DNA from: Escherichia coli
GTDB taxonomy: Bacteria; Pseudomonadota; Gammaproteobacteria; Enterobacterales; Enterobacteriaceae
Reading direction: 5' to 3' (one strand)
DNA: 64,000 nucleotides
NCBI RefSeq assembly: GCF_013315695.1
Contig: NZ_CP054353.1
Of the stretch, positions 38,901 through 41,900 are shown piece after piece. The position numbers are program-made. How positions within the stretch are numbered: the first letter of the stretch is position 1; the number at the start of each line of letters is the position of its first letter.

Positions 38901-41900
38901 GGGTAATAAAGTCATCGAAACATTTGAGTCAATGGGCCTGCGTTTTGGTCGCGATGTTAATGCCTATACCAGCTATGACGAAACAGTGTATCAGGTGAGT
39001 TTGCCGACTACGCAGAAACAAAATCTGCAACAAGTGATGGCAATCTTCAGTGAATGGAGTAATGCCGCAACCTTTGAAAAACTCGAAGTAGACGCTGAAC
39101 GTGGCGTAATTACTGAGGAATGGCGTGCCCATCAGGATGCAAAATGGCGCACCTCTCAGGCGCGCCGCCCTTTCCTGCTGGCAAATACCCGTAATTTAGA
39201 CCGTGAACCTATCGGCCTGATGGATACCGTCGCCACGGTCACACCGGCACAATTGCGCCAATTTTATCAACGCTGGTATCAACCAAATAATATGACCTTT
39301 ATTGTGGTCGGCGATATCGACAGTAAAGAAGCGCTGGCGCTGATAAAGGATAATTTAAGTAAGCTTCCGGCTAACAAAGCAGCTGAAAATCGCGTCTGGC
39401 CGACAAAAGCCGAAAACCACCTGCGCTTTAATATCATCAATGATAAAGAAAACCGGGTGAACGGCATCGCACTCTATTATCGCCTGCCAATGGTGCAAGT
39501 GAGCGATGAGCAAAGCTTTATCGAACAAGCTGAATGGAGCATGTTGGTTCAGCTGTTCAACCAACGTCTGCAAGAACGCATACAGTCGGGCGAGTTGAAG
39601 ACTATTTCTGGCGGCACTGCGCGCAGCGTTAGAATTGCACCCGATTATCAGTCGCTGTTTTTCCGTGTAAATGCACGAGACGATAATATGCAGGATGCTG
39701 CGAATGCATTAATGGCAGAGTTGGCAACCATTGATCAGCATGGCTTTTCTGCTGAAGAACTCGATGATGTTAAATCTACCCGCCTTACCTGGCTGAAAAA
39801 TGCGGTTGATCAGCAAGCTGAGCGTGATTTACGTATGCTGACCAGTCGCCTGGCATCCAGCTCATTAAATAATACGCCGTTCTTGTCGCCGGAAGAGACA
39901 TATCAACTTTCGAAACGTCTGTGGCAGCAAATTACCGTGCAAAGTCTGGCGGAAAAATGGCAGCAGTTAAGAAAGAACCAGGACGCATTTTGGGAGCAAA
40001 TGGTAAACAATGAAGTTGCCGCCAAAAAAGCATTGTCTCCTGCGGCTATCCTGGCGCTGGAAAAAGAGTACGCCAACAAAAAGCTGGCGGCTTACATCTT
40101 CCCAGGCAGAAATTTATCGTTAACAGTAGACGCTGACCCACAGGCGGAAATTAGCAGCAAAGAAACGCTGGCTGAGAATCTGACATCATTAACACTTTCC
40201 AATGGTGCCAGGGTTATTCTGGCAAAATCCGCGGGTGAAGAGCAAAAGCTACAAATTACTGCCGTATCTAATAAAGGCGATTTAAGTTTCCCTGCGCAGC
40301 AAAAATCACTTATCGCGCTGGCAAATAAAGCAGTAAGCGGAAGCGGCGTTGGTGAACTCTCCTCTTCCAGCCTGAAACGCTGGAGTGCGGAAAACTCGGT
40401 AACCATGAGCAGTAAAGTCAGTGGCATGAATACATTGCTCTCTGTTAGCGCGCGGACTAATAACCCTGAACCTGGTTTCCAGTTGATTAACCAGCGAATC
40501 ACCCACAGCACGATTAACGATAATATTTGGGCATCGCTACAAAATGCTCAAATTCAGGCGTTGAAAACGCTCGACCAGCGTCCAGCGGAGAAATTCGCCC
40601 AGCAGATGTATGAGAAGCGCTATGCTGATGACCGCACCAAATTACTGCAAGAAAATCAGATTGCACAGTTTACTGCCGCAGATGCGCTGGCTGCCGATCG
40701 CCAGTTGTTTTCATCTCCAGCGGATATCACCTTTGTCATTGTCGGTAATGTCGCAGAAGACAAACTCGTGGCGTTAATTACGCGTTACTTAGGATCAATC
40801 AAACACTCTGATTCGCCATTAGCCGCAGGTAAACCATTAACTCGCGCGACGGACAACGCATCGGTTACTGTAAAAGAACAAAATGAACCTGTGGCACAGG
40901 TTTCACAGTGGAAGCGTTATGATTCCCGAACACCTGTAAATCTGGCGACGCGTATGGCGCTCGATGCTTTTAACGTCGCACTGGCAAAAGATCTACGCGT
41001 TAATATTCGTGAACAGGCATCAGGAGCATACAGCGTTTCTTCTCGCCTCTCGGTTGATCCTCAGGCCAAAGATATCAGTCATTTGCTGGCTTTTACTTGT
41101 CAACCAGAACGACATGATGAACTGTTAACGTTAGCGAATGAAGTGATGGTTAAGCGTCTGGCTAAAGGGATCAGTGAGCAAGAACTGAACGAATACCAGC
41201 AAAACGTTCAGCGCAGCCTCGATATTCAACAGCGTAGCGTTCAACAATTAGCGAACACTATTGTAAATAGTCTTATTCAATATGACGATCCTGCAGCATG
41301 GACTGAGCAGGAGCAATTATTGAAACAAATGACGGTAGAGAATGTTAACACTGCCGTTAAACAATATCTTTCTCATCCGGTGAATACCTATACCGGAGTA
41401 TTATTGCCAAAATAATAACAGCCCCGTCAACACCTCGTTGGCGGGGATTTTAGCAATATTCGCCATTTTTATGTAATAATTTTATAAATGCGTTCAAAAT
41501 AATAGCCGAGTGCTAATAGTGATATTTTAAGGTCTGATTTTTACGTGATAATTCAGGAGGCGTAGAAAGTGCATAAAAATAACAGCATAAAACACCTTTC
41601 CACCCCCCAAGAATTCAATAATATATTGATTTTCAATGATAAAATATAATTCGCATAATATCTCGCGATAAATAACATTAGGATTTTGTTATTTAAACAC
41701 GAGTCCTTTGCACTTGCTTACTTTATCGATAAATCCTACTTTTTTAATGCGATCCAATCATTTTAAGGAGTTTAAAATGGATAAGAAGCAAGTAACGGAT
41801 TTAAGGTCGGAACTACTCGATTCACGTTTTGGTGCAAAGTCTATTTCCACTATCGCAGAATCAAAACGTTTTCCGCTGCACGAAATGCGCGACGATGTCG

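Follow-up and report, generated by a model that had tools for sequence, protein, structure and literature searches.

The gadBC operon for glutamate-dependent acid resistance lies between two insertion elements in the Escherichia coli contig NZ_CP054353.1 (assembly GCF_013315695.1). We analysed a stretch of 64,000 nucleotides from this contig, called the window below. A first-pass annotation had described an exact GAD box upstream of gadB and had regarded the regulatory region as intact despite the nearby rearrangements. According to our analysis the interval 41416-41776 is very probably a normal gadBC promoter with a GAD box, which would operate in this strain as described for K-12. Such a promoter is already known and is present in essentially every E. 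coli. Sequence identity, position, architecture and conservation were determined in this analysis, while binding, GadE dependence and the transcription start were taken from published work on K-12. Nothing in the sequence was found to contradict this reading.

Genomic context of the pqqL-gadB spacer

The interval is exactly the non-coding DNA that separates the pqqL stop codon (41415) from the gadB ATG (41777). It is framed by the following features:

38620-41415, plus strand, pqqL coding sequence, 931 amino acids, upstream neighbour (from the list of open reading frames; annotated pqqL in K-12 and in E. coli MSB1_4I)
41422-41451, plus strand, terminator-like hairpin with a G+C-rich stem of 10 bp, a loop of 5 nt and then AUUUU; putative pqqL terminator (from RNA folding)
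41777-43177, plus strand, gadB, glutamate decarboxylase B, 466 amino acids (from identity to K-12 GadB)
43333-44868, plus strand, gadC, glutamate:GABA antiporter, 511 amino acids, co-transcribed with gadB (from annotation)

All three genes had been identified correctly in the first pass. There the spacer had been called an AT-rich leader of 360 bp between pqqL and gadB. The position and the AT-richness were confirmed, with a G+C content of 31.9% overall and 29.5-33.5% in 200-bp windows compared to 45-60% in the flanking genes. However, the spacer has a length of 361 bp, equal to K-12, and it is promoter and operator DNA rather than a leader. The 5' untranslated region would take up only about 27-28 nt, leaving the rest for promoter/operator DNA and the pqqL terminator hairpin.

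The pqqL gene was 98.35% identical to K-12 at the DNA level with 8 amino acid differences (923/931 identical). GadB was identical to K-12 in 466/466 amino acids, and 30/30 nucleotide differences in its gene were found at third codon positions. The listed open reading frame 41708-43177 opens at an upstream TTG; the ATG at 41777, located 23 codons further in and preceded by AAGGAG, yields the protein of 466 amino acids. For GadC 509/511 amino acids were identical (2 differences), and the gadB-gadC spacer of 155 bp showed 1 difference from K-12. The hairpin downstream of pqqL folded with -18.6 kcal/mol (z = -3.65 against shuffled sequences), and its stem was largely invariant among nine E. coli haplotypes. 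It was missed by a simple terminator scan because its T run is only 4 long. A search of positions 41000-42200 against Rfam, on both strands, gave no match at E <= 1. Small open reading frames of 21-41 amino acids in the spacer were rejected as genes; they were unsupported and span the hypervariable distal segment.

The nearby rearrangements noted in the first pass are real. A copy of IS4 (about 25458-26804) connects fumC with a truncated fimbrial gene and ydeP and coincides with an inversion endpoint, the rstA-rstB-tus-fumC segment being inverted relative to K-12. A copy of IS1 (about 46494-47191) follows digH and takes the place of dosC together with the 5' portion of dosP. The IS4 copy lies about 15 kb upstream and the IS1 copy 4.7 kb downstream of the operon, and pqqL-gadBC was left untouched by both. 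Despite these events the gene order yddA-yddB-pqqL-gadB-gadC-digH is the same as in K-12 MG1655, including the 361-bp spacer between pqqL and gadB, and positions 35822-46421 of the window were colinear with K-12 at 97.86% identity.

GAD box and core promoter

The proximal part of the spacer contains the following elements:

41678-41697, plus strand, GAD box TTAGGATTTTGTTATTTAAA, RcsB-GadE activator site (exact match to the published site)
41714-41719, plus strand, -35 element TTGCTT, 3/6 to consensus (hexamer assigned by spacing; identical to K-12)
41727-41738, plus strand, RcsB box CGATAAATCCTA, repression site (from the gadA/gadB alignment; probable borders)
41737-41742, plus strand, probable -10 element TACTTT, 3/6 to consensus, preceded by C (identical to K-12)
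41749-41750, plus strand, predicted gadBC transcription start (published K-12 distances mapped to the window)
41765-41770, plus strand, Shine-Dalgarno sequence AAGGAG, separated from the ATG by 6 nt (by inspection of the sequence)

The exact 20-mer described in the first pass is present and unique. With up to 3 mismatches tolerated, TTAGGATTTTGTTATTTAAA still matched the 64-kb window only once, and 0/100 dinucleotide-preserving shuffles contained it. Its identity to the GadE-dependent GAD box, as stated there, was corroborated, as database comparison with the published GadE site revealed 20/20 identical positions and no mismatch (PMC4918353). The box is also identical to the copies of K-12 MG1655 in both the gadB and the gadA promoter. 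Alignment to the published gadB promoter and GadE ChIP had been proposed as checks. The alignment confirmed the match of the box, and the 111 bp directly preceding the ATG, with box, -35, RcsB box, -10, predicted start and Shine-Dalgarno sequence, were identical to K-12 at 111/111 positions.

In K-12 the GAD box was described as a site of 20 bp, with its centre 63 bp upstream of the starts of gadA and gadBC and 16 bp upstream of the -35 element (PMC2887963). The gap between the end of the box (41697) and the start of TTGCTT (41714) in the window is likewise 16 bp, and CTTGC was kept in every gadA and gadB promoter aligned. A spacer of 17 bp separates the -35 from the -10 element, and the predicted start is located 7-8 nt past the latter. 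Position 41749 is obtained from the ChIP-exo distances of -62.5 (GadE) and -184 (GadX P6), which both lead to NC_000913.2 1570097, and position 41750 from the box centre at 63 bp upstream of the start. Using the gap-free K-12 alignment and the published distances, the box centre would thus lie 62.5-63 bp from the probable start. The Shine-Dalgarno sequence was invariant in all gadA and gadB promoters compared.

A scan for sigma-70 promoters (at least 4/6 per hexamer, spacer of 16-18 bp) reported nothing at 41714-41742, since both hexamers are weak with 3/6 each. The assignment of the hexamers therefore depends on their identity to K-12. Weak hexamers fit an activator-dependent promoter readable by sigma-S. 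The promoter-like matches which the scan did report at 41630-41659 (plus strand) and 41551-41524 (minus strand) were left uninterpreted, as 2 were found versus 2.3 expected by chance.

A second RcsB box lies directly upstream of the -10 element in K-12, where the gadB copy is kept save that its left end carries C instead of G (PMC2887963). In our alignment the gadA promoter reads GGATAAATCCTA and the gadB promoter CGATAAATCCTA. AACATTAGGATTT, which forms the left half of the GAD box, recurs inverted as AAATCCTACTTTT in the right half of this RcsB box; this fits the remark of the authors of PMC2887963 on the likeness of that GAD-box half to an RcsB half-site.

Footprints and gel shifts assigned the GAD box to an RcsB-GadE heterodimer and not to GadE alone (PMC2887963). 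In DNase footprints GadE alone left the box unprotected, while RcsB and GadE together protected -50 to -76; the apparent binding constant was about 10 nM (PMC2887963). A G-to-C exchange in the conserved part of the box abolished both binding and stimulation by GadE, and RcsB alone, at high concentration, bound the box adjacent to the -10 element and repressed (PMC2887963). The RcsB-GadE footprint and the mutagenesis were performed on the gadA promoter (PMC2887963). Deletion of gadE changed the transcript abundance by log2 -6.44 for gadB and log2 -5.85 for gadC in RNA-Seq, and a further knockout table listing gadB, presumed to stem from a gadX deletion, gave log2 -0.60 only for gadB (PMC4918353).

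Published ChIP-exo peaks of K-12 (PMC4918353, Supplementary Table 3) were carried over by way of the gap-free alignment of K-12 and window as follows, with distances given relative to the start:

41671-41702 in the window, GadE peak, NC_000913.2 1570144-1570175, distance -62.5, brackets the GAD box
41504-41544 in the window, GadX P7 peak, NC_000913.2 1570302-1570342, distance -225
41545-41585 in the window, GadX P6 peak, NC_000913.2 1570261-1570301, distance -184
41795-41835 in the window, GadX P5 peak, NC_000913.2 1570011-1570051, distance +66, inside gadB

An existing GadE peak of K-12, obtained on identical sequence, thus brackets the box, which answers the proposed ChIP check. For the peak mapping, the offset from NC_000913.2 to NC_000913.3 was taken by us to be +1976; this value was checked by internal consistency only, with the 20-mer (NC_000913.3 1572125-1572144) falling inside the GadE peak. 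The ChIP-exo-derived GadE motif TTARGAWWWWAAATA proved a poor detector, missing the gadB box within 2 mismatches, and the 20-mer was used in its place.

Taken together with the K-12 literature, the following order of events may be proposed. The GAD box at 41678-41697 would be the docking site for the RcsB-GadE heterodimer, which at about -63 would activate a weak promoter with hexamers of 3/6 each. The promoter could be read by sigma-70 or sigma-S holoenzyme, as known from the literature. Strongly activated RcsB would repress via the second RcsB box at about 41727-41738, abutting the -10 element. GadX, and probably GadW too, may contribute a smaller activation from 41504-41585 by countering the silencing of the AT-rich DNA by H-NS, a role of H-NS likewise taken from the literature.

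Conservation of the box and variation of the distal segment

The whole spacer was found in 5404/5426 complete E. coli genomes, mostly at 90-95% identity. Over the full 361 bp, 4085 of 5406 records fell into this range and 90 were at least 99% identical. As so few records reach that identity, the distal haplotype of the spacer in the window belongs to a minority. Nine haplotypes were sampled down the identity ranking (89-100% identity). Variable columns were found 59 times in the distal 250 bp, 5 times in the proximal 111 bp and not once in the box. Invariant blocks comprised 41668-41697 (box plus 10 bp upstream), 41701-41739, 41741-41790 and 41534-41559, together with stretches of the pqqL hairpin and within 41465-41490. 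The three bases directly after the box, 41698-41700, varied among the nine haplotypes, indicating that the conservation concerns the box itself rather than a longer frozen stretch.

The 30-bp block 41668-41697 occurred exactly in 5364 of the 5426 complete E. coli genomes (about 99%). Strain AR_0085 (NZ_CP029741.1) is an exception, its box missing 15 bp on the left side. With each species represented by a single genome, a GTDB search located exact copies of the 20-mer in promoters of the gadA and/or gadB type from E. coli, E. albertii, E. whittamii and Escherichia sp. E1V33. Conserved across these promoters were the box, CTTGC, GAT(A/T)AATCCTACTTTTTT and the Shine-Dalgarno sequence, while the DNA on either side of the box had diverged. 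Three further exact matches, in metagenome-assembled genomes (Lentisphaeria, Bacteroidales), were discarded as chance, being otherwise unlike a gad locus; the Lentisphaeria copy reads AQYCLGFCYLKGDGV and belongs to a coding sequence for Sel1-like repeats. The locus illustrates a phylogenetic footprint, in which an activator site of 20 bp stays invariant among E. coli genomes, species and paralogues amid fast-evolving AT-rich DNA.

The gap-free alignment of the spacer to K-12 revealed 22 differences, all at or before 41665 (93.9% identity overall). They are thus confined to the distal 250 bp, where 9/22 fall inside the mapped GadX footprints, outside of their invariant core. Divergence of the distal segment amounted to 8.8% compared to 4.2-6.4% at third codon positions of the flanking genes. 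Describing the regulatory region as intact is justified where the proximal 111 bp and the conserved blocks of the distal part are concerned; the region is not identical to K-12, however, with substitutions reaching into GadX footprints. The distal features are:

41465-41490, plus strand, distal conserved AT-rich block (invariant at 41465-41479 and 41481-41490 among nine haplotypes)
41504-41585, plus strand, equivalent of two K-12 GadX ChIP-exo peaks, P7 and P6, predicted GadX region (mapped from PMC4918353)
41530-41549, plus strand, predicted GadX/GadW-type motif AGGTCTGATTTTTACGTGAT (19/20 to the ChIP-exo motif AKGKCTGWTWTTWWYMYVAK)

Searching for the GadX motif with at most 2 mismatches gave 2 matches in the window versus 0.29 expected, and the match at 41530-41549, with 1 mismatch, was the better one. 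It straddles the point where the mapped peaks 41504-41544 and 41545-41585 meet, and its core lies in the 26-bp block 41534-41559 that was invariant across the nine haplotypes. The GadX sites of the window are predictions from the mapping of K-12 ChIP-exo data. Positions 41537-41553, overlapping the GadX motif, are repeated directly (88%) in the block 41465-41490. This block may be a candidate for an extra GadX/GadW or H-NS site.

Alternative readings and comparison with known systems

The rare distal haplotype might retune the input of GadX, GadW or H-NS and thereby make the level or the timing of gadBC expression specific to this lineage, with a standard GAD box. The rarity of the haplotype, the confinement of all differences to the distal part with 9 of them within mapped GadX peaks, and a divergence somewhat above that of third codon positions would agree with this. 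Against it, the GadX core and the other conserved blocks are unchanged, the divergence is about that of neutral AT-rich intergenic DNA, and gadB responded far more strongly to the loss of gadE than to the presumed gadX deletion. We consider such a retuning rather unlikely. Still less is to be said for the 20-mer as a chance match in AT-rich DNA or as a gadA-type paralogue misassigned to gadB. Exact copies do occur by chance, as in the three metagenome-assembled genomes, but the expectation for the window is 0. The complete syntenic pqqL-gadB-gadC context, the 100% K-12 identity over the adjoining 111 bp and the gadB-specific flanks, with ATAAATAACA upstream and a protein start of MDKKQVTDL, speak against both versions. 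This context analysis refuted them, and we regard them as hardly conceivable.

A third alternative accepts a box that is present and competent for binding and places the defect in a mutated gadE, rcsB or rpoS at some other site of the genome. The 64-kb window does not contain the regulators, and the IS4 copy, the IS1 copy and the inversion endpoint nearby testify to real IS activity in the lineage. As gadE, gadX and gadW, and likewise rcsB, are located outside the window, the first three were examined in E. coli MSB1_4I (NZ_LR898874.1), the closest public genome, which is colinear with positions 21416-61776 at 99.98% identity over 40 kb. Its acid fitness island was found uninterrupted (gadA, gadX, gadW, mdtFE, gadE, hdeD, hdeAB), with a GadE identical to K-12 in 175/175 amino acids and a gadA promoter carrying its own exact box. 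Furthermore, the changes in gadB are all synonymous, pointing to continued purifying selection on the operon. A broken circuit is therefore judged very unlikely. The normal gadBC promoter remains the preferred reading. Although IS rearrangements flank it on both sides, the operon retains a complete cis-regulatory core and its coding sequences are intact, and the strain is thus expected to be acid resistant like a typical E. coli. Beyond annotation this matters little.

Among known systems the gadB promoter of K-12 MG1655 (Castanie-Cornet & Foster 2001; Ma et al. 2003; Castanie-Cornet et al. 2010, PMC2887963; Seo et al. 2015, PMC4918353) is the direct counterpart, with the same neighbours and spacer length. 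Box, -35, RcsB box, -10, 5' untranslated region, Shine-Dalgarno sequence and the GadB protein are identical, and the window differs by its 22 distal substitutions and its minority haplotype. The K-12 gadA promoter, the paralogue in the acid fitness island, shares the box, the 16-bp gap to CTTGCTT, the segment GATAAATCCTACTTTTTT covering RcsB box and -10, and the Shine-Dalgarno sequence. In contrast, its DNA adjoining the box on both sides, and everything upstream, is unrelated to the gadB promoter of the window; its RcsB box starts with G instead of C, and its protein starts with MDQKLLTDF instead of MDKKQVTDL. A more distant likeness exists to the RcsAB/RcsB box promoters of LuxR/FixJ-type regulators, as TTAGGA, one half of the GAD box, is similar to an RcsB half-site. 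In both cases RcsB binds as a heterodimer with an auxiliary partner of the LuxR family. At the GAD box, which is asymmetric, this partner is GadE, whereas it is RcsA or BglJ in RcsAB-type systems.

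Variation and deletion at the gadB promoter

The 361 bp of spacer between pqqL and gadB (window 41416-41776) carry the 20-bp GAD box, the RcsB-GadE activator site of gadBC, at window 41678-41697 (+). A single complete genome, E. coli strain AR_0085 (NZ_CP029741.1, here L011), was found to have a deletion of approximately 9.2 kb, by which the middle of ydeN was fused to the gadB promoter.

L011:2990-3010, AR_0085 deletion junction, window 32466 joined to 41693

The breakpoint falls within the GAD box (…GGTAATTATG|TAAACACGAG…), a short TTAT microhomology is present at the junction, and ydeM, yddA, yddB and pqqL were removed, as were 15 bp at the left of the box, TTAGGA among them. 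AR_0085 represents a natural GAD-box deletion, in which activation of gadBC by GadE/RcsB is predicted to be lost.

The three bases directly 3' of the GAD box (window 41698-41700) were observed to be a hot spot of variation across E. coli haplotypes, with the alleles CAC, CCA, TAC, CCC and ACC, flanked by invariant blocks of 30 bp and 39 bp. The distal spacer (window 41416-41665) differs from K-12 at 8.8% of its positions, a higher value than the 4.2-6.4% obtained for pqqL, gadB and gadC at third codon positions. At least two families of spacer haplotypes, GGCGTAGAAAGTG versus GACACAGAATGCG, became visible around window 41559-41571, and the haplotype of the window is rare, being found with at least 99% identity in 90 of 5406 records. 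Searching E. coli genomes with the gadB promoter region, six matching places were located on records classed as plasmid, not chromosome.

Candidate regulator sites

Within the distal spacer a direct repeat was detected, its two copies 72 bp apart.

41465-41481, repeat copy ATTTTTATGTAATAATT
41537-41553, repeat copy ATTTTTACGTGATAATT

The second copy overlaps the GadX motif (window 41530-41549). The first copy lies within a conserved block and outside the mapped ChIP-exo peaks, and may be a further GadX/GadW site. Using the ChIP-exo GadE motif with up to two mismatches, 8 matches were obtained in the whole window versus 3.1 expected, and one candidate is located near ydeP, an acid-resistance gene.

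27294-27308, minus strand, TTAGGATTTGAAATA, one mismatch to the ChIP-exo GadE motif TTARGAWWWWAAATA

Relative to the ydeP start codon, this match lies approximately 30-40 bp upstream and on the opposite strand.

Rearrangements relative to K-12

Two insertion elements accompany the rearranged parts of the window.

25458-26804, IS4 transposase gene, with fumC on one side and, on the other, a truncated fimbrial gene adjoining ydeP
about 46494-47191, coding sequence of an IS1A copy, after digH and ahead of dosP

The order rstA-rstB-tus-fumC (window 21416-25400) is inverted compared to K-12, and this indicates a large inversion, one endpoint of which lies at IS4. Colinearity with K-12 stops at window 46421, directly past digH; in the following stretch (window 46422-49459) dosP lacks its N-terminus after IS1A, and dosC and yddY are missing.

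The closest public genome

In NZ_LR898874.1 (E. coli MSB1_4I, here L024), the acid fitness island was found to contain the chu/shu haem-uptake cluster as an insertion flanked by yhiD and dctR (L024:36865-45814), which suggests a lineage belonging neither to phylogroup A nor to B1. Its gadA promoter (L024:24398-24496) contains an exact GAD box. The -10 region reads CCTAATTTTTT versus CCTACTTTTTT in K-12, and a C-to-A change converts the hexamer to TAATTT, nearer to the consensus than that of K-12.
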